A DNA stretch of 16,418 nt from Clostridia bacterium (GCA_045599485.1 JAZRWA010000002.1:1-16418); one strand, 5' to 3'; shown: positions 672 to 16,418, counted from the stretch's first letter. Notes: a model not told the origin generated them from the letters alone. Translations and numbers: made by a program.

Positions 672-1838
672 TTACAGCTTTGCGGCTTCCGCCTGCAGTT
701 TTTCGACGTAATCGGTACGCTCCCAGGTGAAGCTTTCTTCTTCACGGCCGAAGTGACCATAGGCGGCCGTCGCGCGGTAGATGGGACGGCGCAGGTCCAG
801 GCGTTCGATGATGGCGGCGGGACGCATATCAAACACGCGGCTCACAAGATCGGACAGCACATCATCGGCATATTTGCCGGTGCCGTAGGTGTCCACCGTC
901 AGGCTGACGGGCTCGGCAACACCGATGGCGTAAGCGACTTCGATCTGGCAGCGCTCACACAGACCGGCAGCCACCAGATTCTTGGAGGCATGGCGGGCGG
1001 CGTAGGCGGCACTGCGGTCCACCTTGCTGGGATCCTTACCGGAGAAGCAGCCGCCACCGTGGGCGCAGTAGCCGCCGTAGGTGTCCACAATGATCTTGCG
1101 GCCGGTCAGACCGGTATCGCCGGCGGGACCACCGATGACAAAACGGCCGGTGGGGTTGACGTAGTACTTGGTGTTCTCATGCAGCAGCTCGGCGGGAATG
1201 ACCTTTTTGATGACCTCTTCGATCATGGCCTTTTCGATCTCTTCATGGCTGACCGATTCGGCATGCTGCGTGGAAATGACCACCGCATCCACGGCAACGG
1301 GCTTGCCGTCTTCATACGCCACGGTGACCTGGGATTTGCCATCGGGACGCATCCAGGGGCAGGTGCCGTTTTTGCGTACTTCCGTCATGCGGCGGGTGAG
1401 ACGATGCGCCAACGCGATGGGCATGGGCATCAGCTCGGGAGTTTCGGTACAGGCATAGCCGAACATCATGCCCTGGTCGCCGGCGCCCTGCTCATGGCTG
1501 TCGGTGGCGGTGACGCCCATGGAGATATCGGGGCTCTGCTCATGCACAGAGACCATTACACCGCAGGAGTGGCCGTCGAAGCACATATCGCCGTGGGTGT
1601 AGCCGATATCAAGGATCACCTTGCGGGCTATGGATTCGATGTTGATGTTGGCGGCGGTGGTGATTTCGCCCATCACGGTGACAACACCGGTGGTGGCAAA
1701 TGTTTCGCAGGCAACGCGCGCCATGGGGTCGCGGGCGAGAATTTCATCCAGTACGGCATCGGAAATCTGATCGCAGATTTTATCAGGATGACCTTCGGTC
1801 ACGCTTTCGGAGGTAAACAGCTTTCTTACTTTGCTCAT
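672..1838 (-). CDS. metK: S-adenosylmethionine synthetase (methionine adenosyltransferase)
   Basis: 388 aa starting [31 protein letters not shown]. It carries the [12 protein letters not shown] and [19 protein letters not shown] signatures. The RBS GGAAAGGAAAAG sits just upstream of the ATG at 1838. The 68 upstream codons of the tracked ORF overlap the riboswitch and are not coding. Confidence 0.98.
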
Positions 1839-1867
1839 GTTCTTCTTTTCCTTTCCATACAATACGC

Positions 1868-2025
1868 GGACATAAAAAATCCGCTCGCAGCAGACGGGCG
1901 GAATCATTGCTTCATGTCTCGCCTTATCTGTCGGTGTTGCCACCGCCGGAATTAGCACCGCACGTTTTACCGTCGGTTGCCGGGCATCATCGGGCCGTTC
2001 CCTCCGCCACTCTTGATAAGGGATG
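1868..2025 (-). promoter_or_regulatory. SAM-I (S-box) riboswitch with expression platform, upstream of metK
   Basis: The minus strand reads CTTATCAAGAGTGGCGGAGGGAACGGCCCGATGATGCCCGGCAACC...GTGCGGTGCTAATTCCGGC...ACAGATAAGG, which matches the S-box core almost base for base (aptamer about 1922-2022). It is followed by a short GC hairpin (CCGCCC...GAGCGG) and ATTTTTTAT (1872-1880), then the metK RBS. Confidence 0.93.
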
Positions 2026-3705: not shown

Positions 3706-4812
3706 TTATTGGAGCAGACCTGCCAGCTCCGCCATGACGGAGGGCGTATCGATGTTCTGCGGGCAATGACCAGTGCAGGCACCGCAGCCGACGCAATCAG
3801 CAGGTTTACCGACGGATTCGATCTTTTCGGCAGCCCTTAGCGCACCGCGGCCATCCACCTTGTAGGCGTTATAGAGGTTAAGGTATTCGGGAATGTTGAT
3901 CTCCGCCGGGCAGCCGTCGCAGCAGTAGCGGCAGGAGGTGCAGGGAACCTGTACCTGATGACGGAACATTTCGCAGGACTTGAAAAGGAGTGCGGTCTCC
4001 TCATCCGTCAGGGGATTACCGTCAAAGGTGTTGAGGTTATCCTGAAGCTGGTCCATGCTGCTCATGCCGCTCAAAATGACATGTACGGCAGGCAATGTGC
4101 GCACAAAGCGCAGGGACCAGGAAGCGATGCTCCAATCGGGATGGGCGGCCTTCAGCGGGGCTTCGGCTTCGGGGGTCAGCGCCGCGAGACGTCCGCCACG
4201 AACCGGCTCCATGACCATGATGGGGATGCTGCGCTTGGCAAGAATATCGTATTCCTGCTTGGAGGTGCCGTAGAGCCAGTCATAATAATTGATCTGCAGC
4301 TGAGCAAAATCCCAGGCGTGATGATCGGCAAAGCGGGTCAAGGTTTCAAGAGAAGCGTGGCTGGAGAAGCCGAGGTAACGGATACGCCCCAGACGCTTCT
4401 GCTCCAGGAAATACTCGATGGCACCGCTGCAAAGGTAGGAATCGATGTTGTTGTCGAGCAAGCAATGGATCAGATAAAAATCGATGCGATCGGTCTGAAG
4501 ACGCTGCAGCTGCTCTTCGAACACAGCTTTGTAATCGGGGTTGGCACCGATGAAATACTTGGAAGCCAGATAGAAGCTGTCACGGGGATGCTTGGTCATG
4601 CAGGCGCCCAGGCATTTTTCGGATTCGCCGCCGCTGTAGGTATAGGCGGTGTCAAAATAGTTGATGCCGTTTTCATAAGCGCTGTCGATGATCTGATGGG
4701 CGGCCGGATAATCGATGGCGGCTTTGGGGTCGGCGGGGTTGACGGTGGGAAGACGCATGTTGCCCATGCCGAGCGTGGACAGGCGAATGCCTTGATAATC
4801 CTTGAACTGCAT
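3706..4812 (-). CDS. Aldo/keto reductase with C-terminal 2x[4Fe-4S] ferredoxin-type module (COG1453-like)
   Basis: The start at 4812 (MQFKDYQGIRLSTLGMGNMRLP) is preceded by GAAGGGAGA. AKR core motifs are present (GINYFDTAYTYSGGESE, RIDFYLIHC). The C-terminus carries two Cys clusters, CTSCRYCCDGCP and CVGCGACTGHCP. Confidence 0.88.
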   Translation of the reverse strand: MQFKDYQGIRLSTLGMGNMRLPTVNPADPKAAIDYPAAHQIIDSAYENGINYFDTAYTYSGGESEKCLGACMTKHPRDSFYLASKYFIGANPDYKAVFEEQLQRLQTDRIDFYLIHCLLDNNIDSYLCSGAIEYFLEQKRLGRIRYLGFSSHASLETLTRFADHHAWDFAQLQINYYDWLYGTSKQEYDILAKRSIPIMVMEPVRGGRLAALTPEAEAPLKAAHPDWSIASWSLRFVRTLPAVHVILSGMSSMDQLQDNLNTFDGNPLTDEETALLFKSCEMFRHQVQVPCTSCRYCCDGCPAEINIPEYLNLYNAYKVDGRGALRAAEKIESVGKPADCVGCGACTGHCPQNIDTPSVMAELAGLLQ

Positions 4813-4851
4813 TGGAGATCTCCCTTCGGGATAATTTACACTTTCGTATTT

Positions 4852-4880
4852 TTTATACAATAAAATGCGCCGAAGGTCAA
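4852..4880 (-). promoter_or_regulatory. Probable promoter of the aldo/keto reductase gene
   Basis: On the minus strand, TTGACC (4880-4875) is followed by a 17-nt spacer and TATAAA (4857-4852). Confidence 0.55.
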
Positions 4881-6128: not shown

Positions 6129-6149
6129 GGTCGATGCACCTCCATCATG

Positions 6150-6285
6150 TTATGCTTTCTTTTTTGTAAAAAAGAAAAGCCGGCGGATGAAACCACCCGC
6201 CGACATACATAACTGCAAATCGGATGCCTGCACCGGGCGAAACAGTATTCGCGGGGTGAGGAGCGGGCGGCTCCTGCTTAACGCA
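6150..6285 (-). promoter_or_regulatory. Structured infC leader with intrinsic terminator (L20-leader-type attenuator candidate)
   Basis: About 130 nt lie between the promoter and the infC RBS. Hairpins are AGGAGC-CGCCC-GCTCCT and CACC-CC-GCGAA-TACTGT-TTCGC-CC-GGTG. A strong terminator follows: GTCGGCGGGT-GGTTTC-ATCCGCCGGC plus TTTTCTTTTTT (6168-6204). In Firmicutes this position is occupied by the L20-binding leader; class membership was not verified against a covariance model. Confidence 0.6.
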
Positions 6286-6339: not shown

Positions 6340-7425
6340 TTACAGCAGATGAGAGCAGACGGGATCAAAGGAAAGGTAGGCGGTATCGCCGACGGAGAAG
6401 ATCTTTTTGTTGGCGGGGCAGTTGTCGGCAATGCGCACCAGCGTATCGCCCACACGGACGTGATAGTTCTGGTAGCTGCCCATGAAGCAGCTCAGCTCCA
6501 CCGTGCAGGGCAGATCGCCTTTGTCGGAGATGCAGATGGCCTCAGGGCGCAGCACGATGGTGCCTTCGCTGCTGGCTTTGATGCCTTCCGAAGCAGAGAC
6601 ACGGACGATGTGACCGCCGACGTTGACCGCGGCGATGCCCTCCGCGCAGGAGACGACAGAACCCTTCAGGAAGTTGCATTCACCGATGAAATCGGCCACA
6701 AATTCGCTGTTGGGATGATAGTAGATCTCTTCGGGGGTACCCATCTGGGCGATGACACCGCCCTTCATCAGAATGATCTGATCGGACAGGGACATGGCTT
6801 CACTCTGATCGTGGGTGACATAGATGGCGGTGATGCCGATCTTTTGCTGAATACGGCGGATCTCAGTGCGCATTTCCACTCTCAGTTTGGCATCCAGATT
6901 GGAGAGCGGCTCGTCAAAGAGCAGAACACCGGGCTCCACCACCAGAGCACGGGCCAGGGCGACGCGCTGCTGCTGACCGCCGGAAAGCTGGTTGGTCATG
7001 CGCAGCTCCATGCCGTCCAGCTTGACCAGGGACAGGATGTTCATGACCTTTTCGCGGATGACATTCTTGGGTACGCCGCGCAGCTTCAGACCGTAGGCCA
7101 CGTTATCGTAAACGTTCATATGGGGGAAGAGCGCGTAGGACTGGAACACCATGGCGGTATCGCGCTTGTTGGGGGTCAGCTCGTTGATGGGCTGGTCCGC
7201 CAGATAGATCTCGCCCTCATCGGGGGACTCAAAACCGGCGATCATGCGCAGCGTGGTGGTCTTGCCGCAGCCGGAGGGACCGAGCAGCGTGATGAAGCTG
7301 CCGGGGGCGATATCCAGATTGCAATCCTTCACGGCATAGAAATCGGCGTGGGTTTTGGGATCCTTGTAGATCTTGGAGATATGCTCCAGGCGAACGCCCT
7401 TGGGGGCTTTAACAGATTGACTCAT
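6340..7425 (-). CDS. ABC transporter ATP-binding protein, FbpC/AfuC/PotA-type with C-terminal TOBE-like domain
   Basis: Walker A GPSGCGKTT, Q-loop, signature LSGGQQQRVALARAL, Walker B LLFDEPLSNLD and H-loop VTHDQ are all present. A C-terminal beta domain of about 120 aa follows. RBS AGGAGGAAAG. Confidence 0.95.
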   Translation of the reverse strand: MSQSVKAPKGVRLEHISKIYKDPKTHADFYAVKDCNLDIAPGSFITLLGPSGCGKTTTLRMIAGFESPDEGEIYLADQPINELTPNKRDTAMVFQSYALFPHMNVYDNVAYGLKLRGVPKNVIREKVMNILSLVKLDGMELRMTNQLSGGQQQRVALARALVVEPGVLLFDEPLSNLDAKLRVEMRTEIRRIQQKIGITAIYVTHDQSEAMSLSDQIILMKGGVIAQMGTPEEIYYHPNSEFVADFIGECNFLKGSVVSCAEGIAAVNVGGHIVRVSASEGIKASSEGTIVLRPEAICISDKGDLPCTVELSCFMGSYQNYHVRVGDTLVRIADNCPANKKIFSVGDTAYLSFDPVCSHLL

Positions 7426-7442
7426 GATCTTCTTTCCTCCTG

Positions 7443-9194
7443 TCAGGCTTTGTACAGCGCTTTGGTTTCACGCTCAAATTTGCGGGCCAGGCGCTTCTGC
7501 TTGTGATCGGTGTCGAAGTAGCGCAGTATGCCGTTAAGCAGCAGGATCACGCCGTAGGTGATGACGATCAGCACAGTGGCGTAAGCGCAGGCGATTCCGT
7601 TTTCACCCTTCTCGGCAAACTCGTTGATACGAACCGTGATGAGCAGGTATTTGGGAGTGACCAGCAGGATGATGGCGGAAATGGCTGTGATGGAACGGAC
7701 AAAGGTGGTGACGAGACCGGACAGGAAGCTGTCTTTGATGAGGGGCAGCGTGACGGAGGTGAAAACCTTGCCGGAGCCGGCACCCATATCGTAGGCGGAT
7801 TCCTCGATGGATTTGTCGATCTGCCGCAGAGCGGAGATGCCGGAGCGTGTACCGGTGGGCAGCGAGCGGACGATGAACACGATGACAAGAATCGTACCTG
7901 TGCCGTACAAGCCCTGCATTACGCCGGAATGGAAAAGACCGGCGGAATAACCGCGGATGTAGCCGATACCGAGAACGGTTCCGGGGACAGCCATGGCCAG
8001 AATGGAGACAAACTCGATGAAGCCTTTGAGTTTGAATTTCTTTTTGACCACCAGATAGCTGATGATCATACTGAGCAGGGCGGTGATGGGCGTGGCAATG
8101 AGGGACAACAGGATGGAATCCTTATAGGCACGCAAGCCATCGATCTTCCACATGTTGACGAAGTGATCGGTGACCAGCGTGTAGTTGCGGCCCCACAGCT
8201 TGAACATGGCACCGAAGGGAACGGCGACATAAAGCAGTACGACAAAGATGCTGACGAGCGCGCAAAGCACAGACAGAGGATAGCGGACGGATTTGTCCTC
8301 AATCAGCATACGGGCACGGCTGGCCTTGCCGGTGAGCGTCTGGGCGGTCTTTTTTTCCAGATAATACTTCTGGATCAGGAAGAGCACCAATGTCAGCATC
8401 AACAGGATGACGGCCATGGCGGAAGCACCGGGCATATCGTACGTGCCGCCCGTTACCTGCAGGTAGATGGTGGTAGCCAGCGTATCGTAATTGCCGCCGA
8501 TCATCATGGGGTTGGCAAAGTCGGCGACAGACTCGATAAAGGTGACCAGGAAGGCATTGCCAAGACCGGGCAGCAGCAGGGGGAGCGTTACGGACGTGAA
8601 GACCTTGAAGCGGCCGGCGCCCATATCACGGCTGGCTTCCTCCAGGGAGGGATCAATGTTTTTAAGCAGACCCGTCAGCATCATGTAGCAGACAGGGAAG
8701 AAGGTGAGGATCTGAACGATGGCAATGCCGTGCAGACCGTAGATGTTGTTGTTGCGGATGCCCAGCAGCGTACGGGTGACAAGACCGGAACGGCCGAAGA
8801 GCAGGATCATGCTCAAGGACAGCACAAAGGGCGGAGAAACAACGGGGAGCATGCTGACCACCTTGAACAGACCGCGTACCATGCGGGAACGAAGACGGAC
8901 ATAGACATCCACATAGGCAAACAGCAGTCCCAAAGTTACGGAACCGAAGCCTACGATGAGACCCAGCACGATGGTGTTGTTGAAGGCATTGCGGAAGGTA
9001 TACAGATCCCATACGCGGCCGAAAACCGAGAATGAGATGCCGTTGCTGCCGCTGATGGCATCGACCAACAGCATGGCAAGGGGATAGAGAATGAACAGCG
9101 AGAGGAAGATGACCAGAATGACGATGGCACCGATCAGCGTTGGATCGGCAAGGAATTTTTTACGGTCAAGTCGTTTGCTGTTTGATGTGGCCAC
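7443..9194 (-). CDS. ABC transporter permease, fused two-domain (FbpB/AfuB-type, about 12 TM)
   Basis: 583 aa with two repeats of the binding-protein-dependent permease module; the EAA-type loops are EEASRDMGAGRFKVFTSVTLPLL and EESAYDMGAGSGKVFTSVTLPLI. The GTG start at 9194 lies 7 nt after AAGGAGG. Confidence 0.93.
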   Translation of the reverse strand: MATSNSKRLDRKKFLADPTLIGAIVILVIFLSLFILYPLAMLLVDAISGSNGISFSVFGRVWDLYTFRNAFNNTIVLGLIVGFGSVTLGLLFAYVDVYVRLRSRMVRGLFKVVSMLPVVSPPFVLSLSMILLFGRSGLVTRTLLGIRNNNIYGLHGIAIVQILTFFPVCYMMLTGLLKNIDPSLEEASRDMGAGRFKVFTSVTLPLLLPGLGNAFLVTFIESVADFANPMMIGGNYDTLATTIYLQVTGGTYDMPGASAMAVILLMLTLVLFLIQKYYLEKKTAQTLTGKASRARMLIEDKSVRYPLSVLCALVSIFVVLLYVAVPFGAMFKLWGRNYTLVTDHFVNMWKIDGLRAYKDSILLSLIATPITALLSMIISYLVVKKKFKLKGFIEFVSILAMAVPGTVLGIGYIRGYSAGLFHSGVMQGLYGTGTILVIVFIVRSLPTGTRSGISALRQIDKSIEESAYDMGAGSGKVFTSVTLPLIKDSFLSGLVTTFVRSITAISAIILLVTPKYLLITVRINEFAEKGENGIACAYATVLIVITYGVILLLNGILRYFDTDHKQKRLARKFERETKALYKA

Positions 9195-9223
9195 AGGATG
9201 ACCTCCTTAATGATGAAGAGAAA

Positions 9224-9247
9224 GGGGATGGTCCGAAGACCATCCCC
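9224..9247 (-). promoter_or_regulatory. Intercistronic GC-rich hairpin between the binding-protein and permease genes
   Basis: The minus strand reads GGGGATGGTC-TTCG-GACCATCCCC (perfect 10-bp stem with a UUCG tetraloop) followed by TTTCTCTTC. It lies between the SBP stop (9264) and the permease RBS. Confidence 0.75.
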
Positions 9248-9263
9248 AGATCTAAGGCAAAGA

Positions 9264-10349
9264 TTATTCGGTCATGAAGCGGCTGTCGGCAGCGGCACCC
9301 AGAGCATCGAAATAATCGGTGATGTACTGAGTGGTGTTGGCCTTGGCATCTTCAAAGTCGTAATCGATCACGTTGTCGGGATCCAGACCCATGTCATAAG
9401 CGACCTGAGGCTGTTCGGCGTTGTCCAGAACCAGGAACTGATAGGATTCGTTGTCTTTGGCCAGGTTGACGCAATCGGGAGACAGGGCGAATTCCACCCA
9501 CAGCTTGGCGGCGTTGGGATGCTTGTTGCCGGTGAAGATGGCGGTGGCGCCGATCTCATAAGAGGTACCGGAGGCGGGGATGACCAGACCCACGTTGTCG
9601 TAGCCCTTCAGGATCTGGGTGATGCCGTCATGCAGGAAGCCGACGCCGATGACGCATTCACCGATACCGACCTTCTTGGAGGGGCCGGAGCCGGACTTGG
9701 TGTACTGGGCAACGTTCTTATCCAGTTCGACGAAGTACTTCATGGCTTCGTCATGGCCCTTCATCTGAACCATGGTGTTGATGACCAGCTTGGCGGTGCC
9801 GGCGGTGTTGGGGTTGGAAATCCAGATCAGACCTTTGTATTCGGGCTTGAGGAGATCGTCCCAATCCTGAGGAGCTTCCAGGTTCATGTCTTCCAGTTCT
9901 TCGGTGTTGACCATGAAACCGAGGATGCCCTTGTAAATGCCGTACCAGTAGCCATTGGCATCACGGAAGTTGGACTTGGTGATGTGGGAGGCGTTCTGGG
10001 CTTCGTAGGCTTCGAGCAGACCGAGACCAGCAACGATGTTGTAGGGATCGGTGGTGCCGCCGAACCAGACGTCAGCACTGGGATTGCCGTTTTCGGCAGT
10101 GATCTTGGCCTGCACCTCACCGGTGGACAGACGCTGCTTGCTGACCTTGATGCCGAATTCCTTTTCGAACTGGGCGCAGGCAGCGGACAGGTACATTTCT
10201 TCGCAGGAGCCGTAGACGATCAGTTCGCCTTCAGCCTGAGCAGCGGCGACCAGCTCGGGATCAAAATCGGCGATCTCGGCGGAGGCCGTCAGGGAGAAGC
10301 AGCCGAGCGCCAGCATGGCGGTCAGCATCAGAGCCAGGAACTTTTTCAT
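9264..10349 (-). CDS. ABC transporter extracellular solute-binding protein (family 1; AfuA/FbpA/PotD-like)
   Basis: The start at 10349 (MKKFLALMLTAMLALGCFSLTASA, a signal peptide and possible lipobox LALGC) is preceded by AAGGAGG. The mature part (LIVYGSCEE...FEKEFGIKV...ADVWFGG...GYWYG) fits the Fe3+/polyamine/sugar-phosphate SBP cluster. The substrate cannot be called from sequence by eye. Confidence 0.9.
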   Translation of the reverse strand: MKKFLALMLTAMLALGCFSLTASAEIADFDPELVAAAQAEGELIVYGSCEEMYLSAACAQFEKEFGIKVSKQRLSTGEVQAKITAENGNPSADVWFGGTTDPYNIVAGLGLLEAYEAQNASHITKSNFRDANGYWYGIYKGILGFMVNTEELEDMNLEAPQDWDDLLKPEYKGLIWISNPNTAGTAKLVINTMVQMKGHDEAMKYFVELDKNVAQYTKSGSGPSKKVGIGECVIGVGFLHDGITQILKGYDNVGLVIPASGTSYEIGATAIFTGNKHPNAAKLWVEFALSPDCVNLAKDNESYQFLVLDNAEQPQVAYDMGLDPDNVIDYDFEDAKANTTQYITDYFDALGAAADSRFMTE

Positions 10350-10398: not shown

Positions 10399-10427
10399 AT
10401 TATATATTCGAATGTCACTTCTGTCAA
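10399..10427 (-). promoter_or_regulatory. Promoter of the ABC importer operon
   Basis: On the minus strand, TTGACA (10427-10422) is followed by a 17-nt spacer and TATAAT (10404-10399), a perfect consensus. The 5' UTR is about 40 nt with no riboswitch-sized leader. Confidence 0.8.
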
Positions 10428-10485: not shown

Positions 10486-10515
10486 TTGACAACAGGGGGC
10501 GGATATGGTTAAATT
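10486..10515 (+). promoter_or_regulatory. Promoter of the T-box-controlled operon
   Basis: TTGACA (10486-10491) is followed by a 17/18-nt spacer and TTAAAT/TAAATT (10509-10515). The predicted start lies about 10 nt before the stem I K-turn. Confidence 0.65.
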
Positions 10516-10530
10516 AATGCCACAACCTGT

Positions 10531-10797
10531 TGCGATGACGGAATTATGGTTCCGGATTTCAACGCCCAGAGAGTTGGCGGATGGTGCGAGCCAATGCGTG
10601 AAACGGAAACCAGTCTCCCTCCCGAGCAGATGATGCGAAAGCGTTGGCCGTTAGCATGATCCGATTGGCCCCGTTAAAGGCTATGGACTTGATTGAGTCC
10701 GAGAGAACGTTTTTTTCCGGAACGGAAAGAAGCGTCCAGGGTGGTACAACGAAGTGATTTTCGCCCCTGAAACCGATATGGCTTCAGGGGCGTTTTT
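10531..10797 (+). promoter_or_regulatory. T-box leader (tRNA-sensing riboswitch) with intrinsic terminator
   Basis: Stem I elements: K-turn halves TGCGATGA (10531-10538) and GAGCA (10624-10628), AG bulge AGAGAG (10568-10573), and a distal loop containing GGTGCGA (10583-10589) closed by TTGGC/GCCAA. An F-box-like CCGTTA sits at 10648-10653. The T-box sequence CAGGGTGGTACAACG is at 10737-10751, and its GGG...CGAA can pair with TTCG.CCC of the terminator's 5' arm to form the antiterminator. The terminator is CGCCCCTGAA-(10 nt)-TTCAGGGGCG plus TTTTT (10762-10797). Confidence 0.92.
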
Positions 10798-10828
10798 CTA
10801 TCGATTTTAAGCTAAAGGAGAAGATACC

Positions 10829-12244
10829 ATGAGCGTTGTCAGACTGGCCGACATGACCATGCGTCAGAGCGGCAAAAATGTGCATTTCAGCCTTAACTTC
10901 AGAGAAAAGCTGGAGCTGGCCAAGCTGCTGGACCGGCTGGGCGTATCGGTAATTGAAGTCAGCGCCTTTGCCAACCCGAAGGTGGACCGACTGCTGGTCA
11001 AGTCGATCTGCTCTGCTGTAAAGGACAGCACCGTGGCGGTCTCTGTGGGGCTGAGCGAAGAAAACATCGCGCCCGTTCGCAGTGCTATGGAGGAATGCGC
11101 TCATCCGCGACTGCAGGTGACGGCTCCCGTCAGCGCCGTGCAGATGGAGTACCTCGCCGGCAAAAAACCCGCCGCCATGCTGGAAACGATTACCCGGCTG
11201 GTGAGCGCCTGCCATGCGGTTTGCCCTGATGTGGAACTGATCGCCGAAGACGCGACCCGTGCCGACAGCGCTTTTCTTTACGACGCTGTGCGCGCTGCCA
11301 TTGCGGCCGGGGCTTCCACGGTGACGCTGTGTGATGCCGCGGGCAATATGCTGCCCGATCAGTTTGCTTCCTTTATTAATGATGTAAAGGAAAATGTGCC
11401 CGAACTTCAGCAGATCACGCTGGGTGTGGCCTGCAGCAATGACCTTTCGATGGCCGACAGCTGCGCTGTTTCCGCCATCCGCTGCGGCGCGGGGGAGATC
11501 AAGTGTGCCGCGCACGCTGTGAACACCGTCAATCTGGGCAATGTGGCCCGTATTCTGGCAGTCAAGGGGACGGATTTTGACGCTGCGACCGATGTGACCA
11601 CCACGCAGATGAACCGTACGCTGGCTCAGATCTCCCGCCTGTGTGAGAGCGAGCGCAGTGAGAATTCCCCCTTCGATAACGGCGTACAGGCGGCGGACGG
11701 CACCTTCATGACCGTTCATGATGATATCACCGCCGTGATGAAGGCCGTCAACAAGCTGGGCTACGATCTGTCCGAGGAGGACAGCGTGAAGGTGTTTGAA
11801 GCCTTTGGACGCATTGCCGCCAAGAAGGAAACGGTCAACATCAAGGAACTGGACGCCATTGTGGCTTCCGCCGCGATGCAGGTTCCTTCTACTTATAAGC
11901 TGGAAAGCTATGTGATCAACACCGGCAACACCATCAGCGCCACGGCCCACATGAAGCTGAACAAGAACGGTGTGATGCTGGAGGGCATCAGCCTGGGTGA
12001 CGGTCCCATCGATGCCGCCTTCCTGGCGGTGGAGCAGATCGCCGGACGCCATTATGAACTGGATGATTTCCAGATCCAGGCCGTGACCGAAGGCCATGAG
12101 GCTATGGGCGAAGCAGTGGTCAAGCTGCGCAATGAGGGCAAGCTGTTCTCCGGCCGCGGCATTTCCACCGACATTGTGGGCGCGAGCATTCATGCCTATA
12201 TCAGTGCGCTGAACAAGATCGTTTACGAAGAAGCCGCTCTGTGA
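10829..12244 (+). CDS. LeuA/HMGL-like (DRE-TIM metallolyase fold) protein with LeuA_dimer regulatory domain; catalytic metal ligands substituted
   Basis: 471 aa, RBS AAAGGAGAAG. It is colinear with 2-isopropylmalate/citramalate synthases: IEVSAF vs IEAGFP, VELIAEDATRAD vs VEFSAEDAGRTD, and C-terminal GDGPIDAAFLAVEQI and GRGISTDIVGASIHAYISALNKI. However, DTTLRDGEQ reads DMTMRQSGK, HCHND reads ACSND (11429-11437), and GIGERAGN reads AVNTVNLGN. Confidence 0.85.
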   Translation: MSVVRLADMTMRQSGKNVHFSLNFREKLELAKLLDRLGVSVIEVSAFANPKVDRLLVKSICSAVKDSTVAVSVGLSEENIAPVRSAMEECAHPRLQVTAPVSAVQMEYLAGKKPAAMLETITRLVSACHAVCPDVELIAEDATRADSAFLYDAVRAAIAAGASTVTLCDAAGNMLPDQFASFINDVKENVPELQQITLGVACSNDLSMADSCAVSAIRCGAGEIKCAAHAVNTVNLGNVARILAVKGTDFDAATDVTTTQMNRTLAQISRLCESERSENSPFDNGVQAADGTFMTVHDDITAVMKAVNKLGYDLSEEDSVKVFEAFGRIAAKKETVNIKELDAIVASAAMQVPSTYKLESYVINTGNTISATAHMKLNKNGVMLEGISLGDGPIDAAFLAVEQIAGRHYELDDFQIQAVTEGHEAMGEAVVKLRNEGKLFSGRGISTDIVGASIHAYISALNKIVYEEAAL

Positions 12245-12269
12245 CGGCGAGACGGAAAGGAGATAACAA

Positions 12270-14786
12270 ATGAATCTTTCTTTTTCGACCCGCGGCTGGC
12301 AGGAATGCAGCTGGCAGGAGAACACCGAGACTGCGGTGACCATGCGCTTTCAGGGCATTGAACTTTATAATGTGACGGAGGATGAGCAGCTGACGGGCCG
12401 CGGCGGTCCTTTGCATAAATACAACACAGCAGCGACCGTGCGTGAGCTGAAGGAAAAGAAACTGACGGTGCCCTGCATCGACTCTTCCTGCGACATCTCG
12501 GTGCCGGGCAGTGTCGAGACCGTGAAAGCCATGCTGGAGCATGCCCGCAACATTCAGTGCCCCTGCGTGGCAGTAACGGCTCTGAAGGATAACGAAGAGA
12601 CGGTGCGTGCTGCATTGACCGAGCTGGTGCCGCTGGCGGCGGTGCAGCAGGTGACGATCCTGATCAAGACCACCGGCATTTATGCCGATACCGCCCGCCT
12701 GCGCGCGCTGCTGGACGATTTTGCCTGCGATGAGATCGCGGCGCTGTGGAGCATGCACCATCCCTATCGCCTGGCGCATGAATCCGCTGACACGACCATC
12801 AAGAATCTGGGCGGCTATGTCCGCCATGTGCATCTGCGTGACTCTGACGACGAGGGCGAAAACCAGCTCATCGGTGAAGGCACCCTGCCTGTCAAGGACA
12901 TGATGCGCGCCCTCAGCTCCATTGACTACGACGGCTTCATCAGCCTGGAATGGAAGCCCATGTGGATGGAGGAGCTGCCGGACCGCGAGGTCATTTTCCC
13001 GTACTTTGTCAACTACATGAACCGCTTTGAGCAGACCCGCGGCAAGAAAAAGGAGCTTTACGATAACGCTGCCCACACCGGCAAGTTCATCTGGAAGAAG
13101 GATCAGCTGATCAACCTGACCTTCCCGCAGGTGCTCGACCGTGTGGTGGAGGAGTTCCCCGACCAGTACTGCTTCAAATATACCACGCTGGATTATACCC
13201 GCACCTACGAGGAATTCCGCGAGGATGTGGACAACTTTGCGGCGGCGCTGATCTCGCTGGGCGTGAAGCGCGGCAGCAAGGTGGCCATCTGGGCGACCAA
13301 CGTGCCTGCCTGGTACATCACCTTCTGGGCTGCGACCAAGATCGGCGCTGTGCTGGTGACGGTCAATACCGCGTACAAGATCCATGAGGCGGAGTATCTG
13401 CTGCGCCAGAGCGATACCCATACGCTGGTCATGATCGAATCCTGTCTGGATTCCAATTATAAAGAGATCATCCGCGAACTGTGCCCGGAGATCGATTCCG
13501 CCCGTCCCGGCCAGCCGCTGCACTGCAAGAAGCTGCCTTTCCTGCGCAACGTGATCACTTCGGGCTTCCGCATGAAGGGCTGCCTGACGCTGGAGGAGGC
13601 GATGGAGCGTTCTTCTCTGGTGCCCCGTGAGGAAGTGCTGCGCATGGCGGCGCAGGTGCGCCCCGATGATGTGTGCAACATGCAGTACACCAGCGGTACC
13701 ACCGGCTTCCCCAAGGGCGTCATGTTGACCCATTACAACGTGGTCAATGACGGCAAACAGATCGGCGACCGCATGGACCTGTCCACGGCGGACCGTATGA
13801 TGATCCAGGTGCCCATGTTCCACTGCTTTGGCATGGTGCTTTCGATGACCAGCAGCATGACGCATGGCACCACCATGTGTCCGATGCCGTATTTCTCGGC
13901 GAAGGTGAGCCTGGCTTGCATCAATCAGGAGCGCATCACCTGCTTCAATGGCGTACCGACGATGTTTATTGCCATGTTCAACCATGCCGATTACCGCAAG
14001 ACGGACTTTTCCTACATGCGTACGGGCATCATGGCCGGCAGCGGCTGCCCGCCCGAACTGATGCGGCGCGCCGCGCAGCCCGATGAGATGCACATGCTGG
14101 ACATCGTCAGCGTGTACGGTCAGACCGAATCCGCCCCCGGCAGCACCATGAGTGCCTGCGGCGACCCGCTGGACCTGCGCGTCAACACAGTCGGCTATGC
14201 CTTCCCGCATGTTGAATGCAAGGTCATCGACCCCGAAACGGGCGAGGAAGTGCCCGTGGGCGTGAACGGCGAGTTCTGCTCCCGCGGCTACAACATCATG
14301 AAGGGCTATTACAAGATGCCCGAGGCGACCGCCGCCGCCATTGACAAGGATGGCTGGCTGCACAGCGGTGACCTGGCCTGCCGTGATGAACAGAACTGCT
14401 TCCGCATCACGGGACGCCTGAAGGATATGATCATCCGCGGCGGTGAAAACATTTATCCCAAGGAAATTGAGGAATTCATCTACACTCATCCCGCAGTCAA
14501 GGATGTGCAGGTCATCGGTGTGCCGGATAAGAAGTACGGTGAGGAGATCATGGCGTGCGTCATCCTCAAGGAGCCCGGCTCTGTGACGGTGGAGGAGATG
14601 CTGACCTACATCAAGGCTTCTCTGGCCCGCCACAAGGTGCCGCGCTACATCGAGTTTGTGGACGCCTTCCCGATGAACGCCGCCGGCAAGATCCTGAAAT
14701 ATAAGATGCGCGAGGAAGCCACCGAGCGTCTGGGCCTCAAGGGCGCGGCAGGCATCGATACCGCGTCTCCCGGCAAAAAGGAATAA
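12270..14786 (+). CDS. Fusion protein: N-terminal xylose-isomerase-like TIM barrel (sugar phosphate isomerase/epimerase family, about aa 1-250) plus C-terminal AMP-forming acyl-CoA synthetase (YngI/ACSF2-like, about aa 280-838)
   Basis: RBS GGAAAGGAG lies 7 nt before the ATG. The N-terminal part has HVHLRD, EGTLPV and YDGFISLEW, typical of AP_endonuc_2/PF01261. The C-terminal part has all adenylate-forming motifs: YTSGTTGFPKG (13686-13718), YGQTES, GEFCSRG, GWLHSGD, GRLKDMIIRGGENIYPKEIE and PMNAAGKILK. The frame is uninterrupted, and no internal start is associated with the junction. Confidence 0.88.
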   Translation: MNLSFSTRGWQECSWQENTETAVTMRFQGIELYNVTEDEQLTGRGGPLHKYNTAATVRELKEKKLTVPCIDSSCDISVPGSVETVKAMLEHARNIQCPCVAVTALKDNEETVRAALTELVPLAAVQQVTILIKTTGIYADTARLRALLDDFACDEIAALWSMHHPYRLAHESADTTIKNLGGYVRHVHLRDSDDEGENQLIGEGTLPVKDMMRALSSIDYDGFISLEWKPMWMEELPDREVIFPYFVNYMNRFEQTRGKKKELYDNAAHTGKFIWKKDQLINLTFPQVLDRVVEEFPDQYCFKYTTLDYTRTYEEFREDVDNFAAALISLGVKRGSKVAIWATNVPAWYITFWAATKIGAVLVTVNTAYKIHEAEYLLRQSDTHTLVMIESCLDSNYKEIIRELCPEIDSARPGQPLHCKKLPFLRNVITSGFRMKGCLTLEEAMERSSLVPREEVLRMAAQVRPDDVCNMQYTSGTTGFPKGVMLTHYNVVNDGKQIGDRMDLSTADRMMIQVPMFHCFGMVLSMTSSMTHGTTMCPMPYFSAKVSLACINQERITCFNGVPTMFIAMFNHADYRKTDFSYMRTGIMAGSGCPPELMRRAAQPDEMHMLDIVSVYGQTESAPGSTMSACGDPLDLRVNTVGYAFPHVECKVIDPETGEEVPVGVNGEFCSRGYNIMKGYYKMPEATAAAIDKDGWLHSGDLACRDEQNCFRITGRLKDMIIRGGENIYPKEIEEFIYTHPAVKDVQVIGVPDKKYGEEIMACVILKEPGSVTVEEMLTYIKASLARHKVPRYIEFVDAFPMNAAGKILKYKMREEATERLGLKGAAGIDTASPGKKE

Positions 14787-14799
14787 ACAGGAATCAAGA

Positions 14800-14833
14800 A
14801 ACGCTCCGTACAGAGGAATCTGTACGGAGCGTT
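14800..14833. terminator. Bidirectional terminator between convergent genes
   Basis: A perfect 14-bp stem, AACGCTCCGTACAG (14800-14813) with CTGTACGGAGCGTT (14820-14833), closes a 6-nt loop. It is followed by CTTTG on the plus strand and TTCTTGATT on the minus strand. Both U-tracts are weak. Confidence 0.75.
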
Positions 14834-14852
14834 CTTTGCGCGAAAAGGGATG

Positions 14853-16418
14853 TTAATTGTCAGTCAGAGTGATGTATTTGGGCAGGACATAGCCGCGGCG
14901 GCCGCGGGCTTCGATCAGATACCAGCCGTTCTGCTCGCCGAAGATGAGGACCTCGGTACCGGTATCCCATTCGCCCACTTTGGAGCTGGATTTGTCGGGG
15001 GCACAGCGGACGGAGATGGCGGTACTGCCGTTGGTTTTGCCGTTATAGCTGAGCTTGGCGGTGTGCTCGGGCGCGGTGCCGGGGGTGACGAAGCGAAGGC
15101 TGGAGGTGAGCACATACCCCGTATCGCCGTCGTATACGACCTTGCAGAATTTGCTGCCGTATTCCAGTACTTGTACCAGATAGCCGGCCTTGCAATGACG
15201 GGTCAGATAGGCGGAGGTGGAGGCGGAGCGGCGCAGGGCCGCGGAGCCCTCCTTGGGGGTGTAGATGACGCCGATCTGTTTGCTCTTTGGAACAGTGCTG
15301 CCGGCAAAAAATTCTTCGGTGGCGATCTCCAGAGAACGGCCGTTCAGGGTGACTTTGGAAGTGAGGGTACCCAGCTGCCTGAGGGTATATTGGGCGGGTT
15401 TGCTGCTGTAAGCTGTGTTGCCGGAGGAGACGGTCTTGGAAGAGGAGGAGGTGCTGTGAGCGGCGGTGTTATCGCTGCTGCCGTTCAGGGGGAGAACAGG
15501 GGCGTTTTGTTCGGAGAAAGCGGAAGCACTTGAAACGTTCTGTTCGGAAACATTCGGAGAGGGGACGGTTTCTTCAAGCGCTTCGGTACCCGAATACCCA
15601 TCGTAGAAGGTCAGCTTTCCCGTCTGAGCGTAACCGACCTTGCCGTTGTAGCTGACTTTGCACCAGCTTTCACCGCGGGAGACGATGTAGAAGTTTTCGG
15701 AGTCATAGATCCTTTTGACGGCGATCACCGCGGAAGAGGTGCTGGGCTGCTTGTAGATATTCATGGTGTCGGTGCGGTCCGTCGGTTCGAAATCACCTGA
15801 GACCGAGGTCCAGGGAGCGCCATCGTAAACGATGACGTAGTTGTCCATGGTCTCATTCGTCCCTTCGGCTTGCATCAGGATGGAAGCCCGGCCGGGGCTG
15901 CGCAGGGTGACCATGCCGTTGGAATCGACGGTGGCGACGTTTGGATTGTTGGAGGAATACAGGACTTTTTGTTCGACTCCATCGATGGTGCAGGTGTGTT
16001 TGAAGCTGATCTTCTGACCGACGGCAAGGACATTGCCGTGTTGGGTGATCCAGCTGAGCATCTGTGCGCTGTTGGCGGATTTATCCCACTTCCAGTTGAC
16101 GGCGGGGTCTTTTTTTGTGACGGTGACATGAATGGTGGTTTTGTAGGTGGTATCGGCGTCGGTATCGTATTCGACCATGTAGACCGTATAATTGCCGGTG
16201 TGATCGAAGCTCAGGGTGCCGCTGAAGGTGGACCAGATGCCTTTGCCCATGTCCTTGGTGATGGAAACGATTTCGGTGTTGGGCTGGCGTTCGGCGGTGC
16301 AGCCTCTGTCCACACGGCAGGTCAGATACTGGTCGGGACGCTGAATGACGGTATCGGCCAACACACAGGAGGTCATGCTCAACAGGAGGCACAGGACAAT
16401 GCAGACGGATCTTTTCAT
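14853..16418 (-). CDS. Secreted multidomain protein: signal peptide, Big_2-type Ig-like domain, Ser-rich linker and three SH3b-like domains
   Basis: The ATG sits exactly at the window edge (MKRSVCIVLCLLLSMTSCVLA). YSSNNPNVATVDSNGMVTLRSPGRASI is a Big_2 signature. Three W/Y-x-K/E-V...GYV/GYA SH3_3-like repeats are present (SWCKVSYNGKVGYA, KFCKVVYDGDTGYV, GWYLIEARGRRGYV). The upstream region is not in the window. Confidence 0.8.
   Translation of the reverse strand: MKRSVCIVLCLLLSMTSCVLADTVIQRPDQYLTCRVDRGCTAERQPNTEIVSITKDMGKGIWSTFSGTLSFDHTGNYTVYMVEYDTDADTTYKTTIHVTVTKKDPAVNWKWDKSANSAQMLSWITQHGNVLAVGQKISFKHTCTIDGVEQKVLYSSNNPNVATVDSNGMVTLRSPGRASILMQAEGTNETMDNYVIVYDGAPWTSVSGDFEPTDRTDTMNIYKQPSTSSAVIAVKRIYDSENFYIVSRGESWCKVSYNGKVGYAQTGKLTFYDGYSGTEALEETVPSPNVSEQNVSSASAFSEQNAPVLPLNGSSDNTAAHSTSSSSKTVSSGNTAYSSKPAQYTLRQLGTLTSKVTLNGRSLEIATEEFFAGSTVPKSKQIGVIYTPKEGSAALRRSASTSAYLTRHCKAGYLVQVLEYGSKFCKVVYDGDTGYVLTSSLRFVTPGTAPEHTAKLSYNGKTNGSTAISVRCAPDKSSSKVGEWDTGTEVLIFGEQNGWYLIEARGRRGYVLPKYITLTDN

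Follow-up and report, generated by a model that had tools for sequence, protein, structure and literature searches.

Why should a leader RNA that responds to the charging of a tRNA stand before the gene for an acyl-CoA synthetase? The question is raised by a two-gene unit in a 16,418-nucleotide stretch of DNA from a Clostridia bacterium (GCA_045599485.1, JAZRWA010000002.1), hereinafter the window; all coordinates of the unit are positions in this whole stretch, on the plus strand unless given otherwise. In this unit, a T-box leader precedes the genes for a LeuA-like protein and for a fusion of a TIM-barrel domain with an AMP-forming acyl-CoA synthetase (ACS). A first-pass annotation, made from the sequence alone, had suggested that, upon starvation for one amino acid, a carboxylic acid is activated in what would be the first reaction of a salvage pathway. 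This suggestion is supported by the leucine specifier codons of the leaders, by the linkage of the gene pair to VOR-type or PFOR-type oxidoreductases and to IlvE, and by the isoleucine and valine T-boxes associated with sibling, MbcS-like synthetases. With moderate confidence, we favor the view that the region is an operon induced by leucine starvation and represents the leucine branch of a pathway that salvages branched-chain fatty acids into branched-chain amino acids.

The T-box leader and its specifier codon

In a permissive local Rfam search, the window leader matches the T-box model (RF00230) over its full length (model positions 1-219; 58.1 bits, E=4.8e-12). The Stem I signatures are present, including GCGAUGA...GAGC (GA/K-turn motif), AGAGA and the distal-loop sequence GGUGCGAG, and a CAGGG/CCCUG antiterminator helix forms the alternative to the terminator, such that a T-box sequence of the UGGN-bulge type is combined with mutually exclusive antiterminator and terminator structures. 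The terminator hairpin has a dG of -22.9 kcal/mol (z=-5.4), with none of 200 shuffled sequences folding as well, and is followed by UUUUU. Moreover, an nhmmer profile constructed from 40 related leaders, that of the window included, aligns the window leader end to end (E=6e-61), and the orthologous leader of one related locus (L007) reaches 113.1 bits against RF00230. Across the family, a canonical T-box sequence is located 75-100 nt upstream of the start of the LeuA-like gene in about 40 loci, and the profile search adds more.

The specifier was read as the triplet that lies 5' of the lower helix, which has the conserved sequence N-UUCC-N-GAG. This register is fixed by covariation within the helix, where GGAA/UUCC is replaced by GGAG/CUCC in L003, L020, L036 and L039. 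Among 39 leaders parsed with a regular expression, the specifier is CUG in 25, CUC in 13 (as in the window) and CUU in one; all of these are leucine codons that vary at the wobble base alone, and in the wider set found with nhmmer a leucine codon is present in every leader that precedes a LeuA-like gene. By-eye readings of a threonine (ACC) or valine (GUC) specifier were dropped in favor of CUC once the 39 leaders had been aligned in register. The window leader is thus predicted to sense tRNA-Leu and, as in other members of the T-box family, uncharged tRNA-Leu would be expected to cause read-through. The nhmmer profile did not find a T-box in L064, L067, L069-L074 and L080, and neither did Rfam in L070; these loci carry a separate gene for a helix-turn-helix (HTH)-cupin protein.

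Gene neighborhoods and the putative leucine salvage route

In a scan that included one genome per species, the fusion was detected in at least 598 genomes. The 80 loci listed come from Oscillospiraceae/Faecousia, Acutalibacteraceae, Lachnospiraceae, Eggerthellaceae and other groups, and all are from metagenome-assembled genomes (MAGs) of gut or rumen origin. Most of the neighborhood counts are based on 76 loci, in 71 of which the LeuA-like gene lies directly upstream of the fusion gene; of the remaining loci, L045, L059 and L079 are truncated upstream, and in L034 and L038 a tblastn search located, directly upstream, the LeuA-like gene that had been missed by the crude open reading frame (ORF) caller. 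A 2-oxoacid:ferredoxin oxidoreductase (OFOR) is encoded within eight genes in 43 of the 76 loci, to which tblastn contributes further PFOR cases, and IlvE is adjacent or within the same distance in 20 loci. The oxidoreductase is either the four-subunit, VOR-type enzyme (33 loci) or a single-chain, PFOR-type enzyme encoded directly downstream (at least 14 loci by tblastn), and the two types never occur together in one locus. The OFOR alpha subunit passes the NCBIfam cutoff for VorB (527.7 versus 399) and is accompanied by a ferredoxin-type delta subunit, and the aminotransferase passes that for IlvE (473 bits versus 307). A compact arrangement is seen in L070, where a single tight operon encodes the LeuA-like protein, the fusion, IlvE, a P-loop protein, the delta, alpha, beta and gamma subunits of VOR, an HTH-cupin protein and a 559-residue ACS. 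In L077, a leucine (CUC) T-box precedes the genes for the P-loop protein, VOR, IlvE, the LeuA-like protein and the fusion, and in L002 and L036 the pair together with PFOR is found downstream of ilvBNCD.

With regard to the fusion, the first-pass assignment of its enzyme to the AMP-forming ACS holds: AMP-binding (PF00501; 301.9 bits) and AMP-binding_C (PF13193; 66.5 bits) both meet the Pfam cutoffs, and all the core motifs (YTSGTTGFPKG, YGQTE, GDL, GRLKDMIIRGGENIYP and AGK) are intact and invariant across 16 relatives. The mean pairwise identity of this domain across 74 species is 76-78%, compared to 51% for the TIM-barrel domain. The closest structures in a PDB sequence search are generic fatty-acyl or feruloyl-CoA synthetases.

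The same leader profile, applied in register, also identifies T-boxes with isoleucine and valine specifiers. In about 29 loci, a T-box with an AUC (Ile) specifier precedes an MbcS-like synthetase, and in about 13 loci a GUA or GUC (Val) T-box precedes a second MbcS-like paralog that is followed by the P-loop gene and VOR; the three T-boxes of L007 are matched by Rfam as well (113, 93 and 69 bits). For the synthetases of both arms, the best NCBIfam match is MbcS, below the equivalog cutoff. Purified MbcS of Staphylococcus aureus prefers 2-methylbutyrate and isobutyrate, isovalerate being a poor substrate (PMC10026030), which would explain why an ACS of another family is employed in the leucine arm. 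The combination of a catalytically dead LeuA with a TIM barrel is specific to the leucine arm, and the isoleucine and valine arms bear HTH-cupin domains instead.

The synthetases of the latter two arms are fusions of an XRE-type HTH, a cupin and an MbcS-like ACS (12889-15156 and 15412-17805 in L007), and the fusion of a DNA-binding domain to a CoA ligase suggests a regulator of the trigger-enzyme type. In L070, the HTH-cupin gene (16882-17430) is separate from the ACS gene (17462-19141) and T-boxes are lacking. The T-box that precedes an MbcS-like ACS gene in L017 (5259-5544, minus strand) differs from its neighbors by 2 nt, so that the register is ambiguous between CUA and GUC.

A three-armed system for the salvage of leucine, isoleucine and valine seems to be the most economical reading of these arrangements. 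For the leucine arm, we propose that the CUC specifier and the UGGU bulge are contacted, through base pairing, by uncharged tRNA-Leu, which thereby stabilizes the antiterminator, so that the terminator is read through. The ACS domain would then convert isovalerate to isovaleryl-CoA at the expense of ATP, with AMP and PPi as by-products; VOR or the single-chain PFOR would reductively carboxylate isovaleryl-CoA to 2-oxoisocaproate; and IlvE would transaminate the latter to leucine. In the least certain step, the LeuA-like protein, acting as a non-catalytic, leucine-binding partner, would regulate or scaffold the synthetase, probably by contacting the TIM-barrel domain, and would add feedback by free leucine to the transcriptional control exerted through tRNA charging. 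We infer isovalerate as the substrate from context only, and the direction of flux as well as the functions assigned to the LeuA-like protein and to the TIM barrel are likewise predicted; an ACS of the AMP-forming type that is induced by leucine starvation would be expected to function in the biosynthetic direction. A PFOR-superfamily enzyme of Clostridium sporogenes is genetically required for all three branched-chain acids (10.1101/401489), which makes a PFOR partner plausible.

Several other proteins recur in these neighborhoods. The P-loop protein, a conserved MinD/ParA/CbiA-like product of about 231 residues (motif GHYGSGKT) without an NCBIfam match, is found in about 30 loci (for example, 13600-14295 in L070 and 17815-18516 in L007) and is always encoded just upstream of the VOR delta subunit. 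A 267-residue Amidohydro_2 protein, encoded directly downstream of the fusion in L078 (12575-13378) and in 11 other loci, mostly of Acutalibacteraceae, may be a further, lineage-specific component of the leucine arm; its family (PF04909) is described by Pfam only as 'Amidohydrolase' and also includes reversible decarboxylases and lactonases. In L007, a Mur-ligase-like gene is preceded by a tetrahydrofolate (THF) riboswitch (6135-6232; 71.4 bits), which is located about 2 kb upstream of the leucine T-box.

The activated acid could conceivably have a different fate. In S. aureus, MbcS-type enzymes serve branched-chain fatty-acid synthesis (PMC10026030), and by this precedent the ACS of the window would make isovaleryl-CoA to prime the synthesis of iso-branched membrane fatty acids or for another use outside amino-acid metabolism; the lack of OFOR and IlvE genes in the window would agree with such a role. 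We consider it quite improbable, given that the T-boxes specific for leucine, isoleucine and valine, along with the operonic linkage to VOR and IlvE, indicate amino-acid supply, and that primer synthesis would not be expected to respond to the charging of a single tRNA. A different acid might also be the substrate: the ACS could activate another leucine-related compound, such as 2-hydroxyisocaproate, 3-methylcrotonate or 3-hydroxyisovalerate, which the TIM-barrel and LeuA-like parts would process. This would give a function to domains that are otherwise unexplained and would be compatible with an ACS family (PRK12583, YngI/ACSF2-like) that is generic and with a substrate that is itself predicted. 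Nevertheless, an OFOR partner calls for a simple acyl-CoA that has one carbon less than the 2-oxoacid, and the symmetry with the isoleucine and valine arms favors isovalerate, so we deem an alternative acid rather unlikely.

Some of our observations weigh against the salvage route proposed here. The 58.1 bits of the window leader fall below the RF00230 gathering score of 93, and for this reason the T-box is not listed in an Rfam scan of the whole window at the gathering threshold, which returns the S-adenosylmethionine (SAM) riboswitch only; in addition, the base after the specifier is a pyrimidine (C) and not the usual purine. Neither OFOR nor IlvE is encoded in the window, and linkage of an ACS with an OFOR and a branched-chain aminotransferase was found in the relatives only, so that, for the window's own genome, a complete pathway is extrapolated from them. 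Both genes are also missing within eight genes of the pair in 31 of the 76 loci, several of which are short contigs, and two of which (L039 and L041) do carry a PFOR-like gene according to tblastn. The best NCBIfam match of the ACS, PRK12583, is a generic family and is reached below its cutoff (663.2 versus 832 bits). Finally, the LeuA-like protein and the TIM barrel are both dispensable for the proposed chemistry, so that the pathway leaves their strict conservation unexplained, and the full set of metal ligands in the TIM barrels of many relatives would allow for catalysis.

The LeuA-like protein and the TIM-barrel domain

The LeuA-like protein consists of a degenerate HMGL-like barrel (residues 1-270; PF00682, E-value in the 1e-31 range) and an intact LeuA allosteric/dimerization domain (LeuA_dimer, residues 336-464; PF08502, 109.8 bits, 1.2e-31, positions 2-130 of 131). 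All NCBIfam cutoffs for LeuA are missed widely, the best match being NF002086 (290.9 versus 532), with TIGR00973 at 267.7 versus 598.7. Alignment with the solved LeuA structures, Escherichia coli LeuA and the bona fide LeuA of L051 reveals the extent of the degeneration: the HxH motif is changed to AxS and DGEQ to QSGK, the GIGERAGN loop is shorter by four residues, and, relative to the E. coli and L051 proteins, about 29 residues of accessory subdomain I are gone, including HSSGIHQDG with its essential histidine. In isopropylmalate synthase (IPMS), the architecture of which has been described, this subdomain is essential to catalysis (PMC9860122). The catalytic losses are common to all 71 extracted members of the family, in which HxH is represented by (S/A)C(S/A) and the loop is invariably deleted. 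Judged by its sequence, the LeuA-like protein cannot be an IPMS, and the loss of the LeuA catalytic apparatus is old and conserved. The first-pass annotation had the protein devoid of metal ligands; both histidines are indeed lost, but the first aspartate is retained and, therefore, two rather than three of the classical ligands have disappeared. A decaying pseudogene was considered and ruled out by the retention of the LeuA-like gene in 71 of the 76 loci with invariant motifs.

Leucine T-boxes control many leuA or ilv-leu operons of Firmicutes, and the LeuA-like protein is closest to bacterial LeuA. Together with the position of the pair after ilvBNCD in L002 and L036, this could be taken to mean that the pair is a non-orthologous replacement for IPMS that feeds LeuCD and LeuB, for instance, by condensing ACS-made acetyl-CoA with 2-oxoisovalerate. 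We find such a replacement highly improbable because the LeuA-like protein has lost its catalytic residues along with the accessory subdomain, the ACS falls outside the acetate-CoA ligase type, and the consistent partners of the pair are VOR or PFOR and IlvE. The leuC, leuD and leuB genes adjoin the pair in only one of 82 loci (L051), where a canonical LeuA is encoded as well. In this Eggerthellaceae MAG (L051, 8589-17131), the pair is followed by leuC, leuD, the canonical leuA (46% identical to E. coli LeuA) and leuB, and thus the de novo and putative salvage routes to leucine would stand side by side.

The pattern of conservation within the LeuA-like family is informative with respect to its function. 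Mean pairwise identity amounts to 67% in LeuA_dimer, 46% in the barrel and 39% in the linker, and the G(D/N)GP(I/V)DA signature of LeuA_dimer is kept (GDGPIDA in the window). A PDB sequence search with the regulatory domain gave marginal matches, with E=0.28 to LiCMS (3F6G). Because the allosteric domain is the best conserved part and the catalytic apparatus is gone, we tentatively favor a role for the LeuA-like protein as a non-catalytic, leucine-binding regulatory or scaffolding partner; the earlier suggestion of a regulatory or ligand-sensing subunit is compatible with the conservation of this domain. A precedent exists in HisZ, a catalytically inactive paralog of a pathway-related enzyme, which senses the end product and thereby serves the first committed enzyme as its regulatory subunit (PMC9734150). 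By this analogy, the dead IPMS might be a leucine-sensing allosteric subunit that gates isovalerate activation via a TIM-barrel adaptor, either fused to the synthetase or encoded next to it, resulting in control at two levels, a possibility that we put forward with considerable reserve.

The TIM-barrel domain matches PF01261 with 62.8 bits (cutoff 31.1). An AlphaFold 2 (AF2) model based on a 42-sequence alignment of distant relatives has a predicted local distance difference test (pLDDT) score of 93.4 and replaced an earlier model from 13 sequences, which was discarded at 56.7. A Foldseek search of the PDB with this model retrieved UlaE, AsbF, IolI and ketose 3-epimerases with TM scores of about 0.75 (0.76 for UlaE) and sequence identity of 12-17%, that is, generic xylose-isomerase-like barrels only and no specific functional match. 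Of the canonical Glu-Asp-His-Glu metal site, two positions appear to be substituted in the window (K133 and S161) and two are kept (H188 and E227), as assigned by comparison of sequence motifs rather than by structural superposition. Position 133 is occupied by Lys in 42, by Glu in 26, by Arg in four and by Gln in one of the 75 other fusions, and D161 is present in 71 of them; distant and stand-alone relatives mostly keep E133 and D161, and the family as a whole retains E31, E171, H188, D191 and E227. The substitutions at positions 133 and 161 look like a lineage-specific switch of active-site chemistry or, alternatively, a loss of the metal. Hence the earlier description of the ACS as the only clearly intact enzyme of the fusion is fair for the window and does not extend to the many relatives with a full ligand set.

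An exhaustive search of 1.84 billion representatives yielded 1405 relatives of the TIM-barrel domain, including stand-alone proteins of about 260-285 residues. In both of the two stand-alone cases inspected, the gene is located between a LeuA-like gene, which also lacks HxH, and an AMP-binding gene, and therefore the conserved unit is a trio of LeuA-like protein, TIM barrel and ACS, fused or split. Strong conservation, the full ligand set in many relatives and constant presence imply that the TIM barrel is not a relic.

The trio might accordingly be viewed as a catalytic unit in which the LeuA-like and TIM barrels perform undescribed chemistry on a leucine precursor, such as enolization, isomerization or a C-C reaction of a 2-oxoacid, for which the ACS would deliver, or from which it would use up, the CoA thioester. 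Such a unit would account for the nearly invariant D-x-T, xDATR and CDTAG motifs that the LeuA-like family (71 members) keeps in its pseudo-active site, for the five acidic and histidine residues that the TIM barrels retain, along with E133 and D161 in most distant members, and for the strict conservation of a trio two parts of which the simple pathway does not need; furthermore, the structural neighbors of the TIM barrel are metal-dependent enzymes that form enediolates beside a carbonyl. Weighing against this view are the absence from the LeuA-like family of both histidine ligands, the GIGERAGN loop and the catalytic histidine of subdomain I; the comparatively low conservation of the two barrels (46% and 51%) next to the ACS and LeuA_dimer; the lysine at TIM position 133 in the majority of fusions, to which the window adds Ser161; and the fact that the conversion of isovalerate to leucine requires no extra reaction. 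We consider a catalytic unit of this kind unlikely and retain the regulatory partner as our preferred, if tentative, explanation of the LeuA-like protein.

The unit in its setting and comparison with known systems

The features of the unit are collected in Table 1. The promoter is separated from the T-box match by 11 nt, and the 25-nt spacer between ORF A and ORF B contains an AGGAG ribosome-binding site. As the upstream neighbor is divergent and has its own promoter, the unit comprises exactly two genes; the promoter, T-box and terminator that had been reported to bracket this pair were all recovered at the expected positions. The hairpin beyond ORF B was missed by a simple terminator scan. 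Its T-run is weak on the plus strand (CUUUG) and better on the minus strand, and from its sequence it is likely to be a terminator shared by the operon and the convergent SH3/Big_2 gene.

Table 1. Coordinates and assignments of the elements of the two-gene unit in the window.
Feature	Position	Strand	Basis and remarks
Sigma-70-type promoter, TTGACA-18-TAAATT	10486..10515	+	Consensus scan, 10/12 matches; predicted promoter function
T-box leader, putative tRNA-Leu-sensing riboswitch	10526..10771	+	Rfam RF00230 match
Specifier codon CUC (Leu) in the Stem I specifier loop	10615..10617	+	In-register comparison of leaders
Conserved T-box sequence AGGGUGGUACAACG, with UGGU for pairing with the tRNA 3' end	10738..10751	+	Direct reading and Rfam alignment
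Intrinsic terminator of the T-box expression platform	10762..10797	+	Hairpin 10762-10792 and U-run
ORF A, LeuA-like pseudoenzyme, 471 aa	10829..12244	+	Pfam: HMGL-like, LeuA_dimer
ORF B, TIM-barrel::ACS fusion, 838 aa	12270..14786	+	Pfam: AP_endonuc_2, AMP-binding, AMP-binding_C
N-terminal xylose-isomerase-like TIM-barrel domain of the fusion, aa 1-255	12270..13034	+	PF01261
AMP-forming ACS domain of the fusion, aa 286-838	13125..14786	+	AMP-binding, AMP-binding_C; putative isovalerate-CoA ligase
14-bp hairpin at the boundary with the convergent SH3/Big_2 gene	14800..14838	.	AACGCUCCGUACAG...CUGUACGGAGCGUU

The divergent neighbor upstream (6340-10349, minus strand) is an ATP-binding cassette (ABC) transporter consisting of a binding protein, a fused double permease and an ATPase; it has a perfect consensus promoter (TTGACA-17-TATAAT, 10399-10427, minus strand) and resembles the putative 2-aminoethylphosphonate PhnS2/U2/T2 set, with all three proteins below the NCBIfam cutoffs. 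Farther away, the SAM riboswitch (RF00162; 1921-2022, minus strand; 81.8 bits, above the gathering threshold) is located immediately upstream of metK (672-1910, minus strand), which encodes a SAM synthetase with the N, M and C domains of S-AdoMet_synt, in an ordinary S-box arrangement. The gene at 3706-4860 (minus strand) encodes an aldo/keto reductase fused to a C-terminal 4Fe-4S dicluster domain, and near it are rplT, infC and the genes for a heptaprenyl diphosphate synthase component I-like protein and a NusG_II-domain protein.

The physiology of iso-acid reductive carboxylation and T-box control of amino-acid supply genes are already known. Apparently new, being absent from the papers searched and from a 2008 census of T-box regulons, are acyl-CoA synthetases and VOR under amino-acid-specific T-boxes, the three-arm logic, and the trio of dead LeuA, TIM barrel and ACS. 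In the literature searched, the scope of which left out most subscription journals, neither the module nor T-box-controlled CoA ligases nor a LeuA pseudoenzyme are described and, as in the first-pass annotation, no characterized pathway with this gene pair could be named. The 2008 census lists no CoA ligase and contains no CoA or acyl terms (PMC2494555).

Many rumen and gut anaerobes need, or profit from, branched-chain volatile fatty acids, and the literature searched does not define which genes account for the activation step or its regulation; the present locus family provides candidates for all three arms. The tagging of each arm by its own T-box specifier amounts to an unusually clean, built-in annotation of substrate specificity, which would allow the prediction of consumers of isovalerate, 2-methylbutyrate and isobutyrate, metabolites that are active in the host, among uncultured Oscillospiraceae, Acutalibacteraceae, Lachnospiraceae and Eggerthellaceae. 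Better-grounded iso-acid supplements for ruminants and better auxotrophy predictions for cultivation could follow. The T-box regulon would be extended to acyl-CoA synthetases and oxidoreductases, and a widespread dead LeuA with a TIM barrel would represent either a new pseudoenzyme regulator or new chemistry. Should the leucine-sensing role be correct, this would be the first pseudoenzyme regulator derived from IPMS and the first gene-level route from isovalerate to leucine, in at least 598 gut and rumen species.

How does this locus relate to systems that are already understood? Labeling physiology indicates that rumen and gut anaerobes reductively carboxylate isovalerate, 2-methylbutyrate and isobutyrate to leucine, isoleucine and valine, respectively. 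Reductive carboxylation of branched-chain acids to amino acids is referred to in PMC7356843. The chemistry proposed here is the same as in the classical scheme, from acid to acyl-CoA, through a ferredoxin-dependent step to the 2-oxoacid, and on to the amino acid, and the gut and rumen provenance of all 80 listed loci matches its habitat. A module at the level of genes was not found for the classical scheme in the literature searched. In contrast to that scheme, each arm here has its own T-box and synthetase, and the dead LeuA and TIM barrel of the leucine arm are unpredicted by it. S. aureus MbcS, a methylbutyryl-CoA synthetase (PMC10026030), shares with the window ACS the AMP-forming mechanism and is the best match of the isoleucine- and valine-arm enzymes; nevertheless, the window ACS belongs to another, PRK12583-like family and is only about 25% identical to its MbcS-like neighbors, and MbcS serves lipid primers, handles isovalerate poorly and, in that report, is not under T-box control.

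Comparison of the individual proteins reveals a similar mixture of likeness and divergence. The HMGL-like barrel fold, the C-terminal LeuA_dimer domain and control by a leucine T-box are common to bacterial LeuA (TIGR00973, NF002086; PMC9860122) and the LeuA-like protein, but the latter lacks the histidine metal ligands, DGEQ, the GIGERAGN loop and the subdomain-I catalytic histidine and is always paired with the TIM barrel and ACS, not with LeuBCD. The fold of the TIM-barrel domain and residue positions of the H188/D191/E227 type are shared with the UlaE, AsbF and ketose 3-epimerase barrels (PDB 3CQJ, 3DX5 and 3VNI; TM scores of 0.72-0.77), from which it is set apart by an identity of 12-17%, by fusion to an ACS and, in the window, by the apparent replacement of the first catalytic or metal-binding Glu with Lys and of Asp with Ser (by motif comparison); in the loci examined, the pair is not flanked by genes of sugar pathways. 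The parallel with the HisZ-HisG(S) ATP phosphoribosyltransferase (PMC9734150) is one of function only, without homology, and the interaction of the LeuA-like protein and its response to leucine are hypothetical.

Leucine-specific T-box leaders precede the ilv-leu operon and leuS of Bacillus subtilis. The window leader has in common with the leucine leaders of RF00230 a Stem I with the GA motif, the AGAGA and distal-loop motifs, a CUN specifier, the T-box sequence and the terminator/antiterminator pair, and differs in the C that follows the codon and in a score below the gathering threshold. Unlike those leaders, it governs genes that encode neither an aminoacyl-tRNA synthetase nor a de novo biosynthesis enzyme or a transporter.

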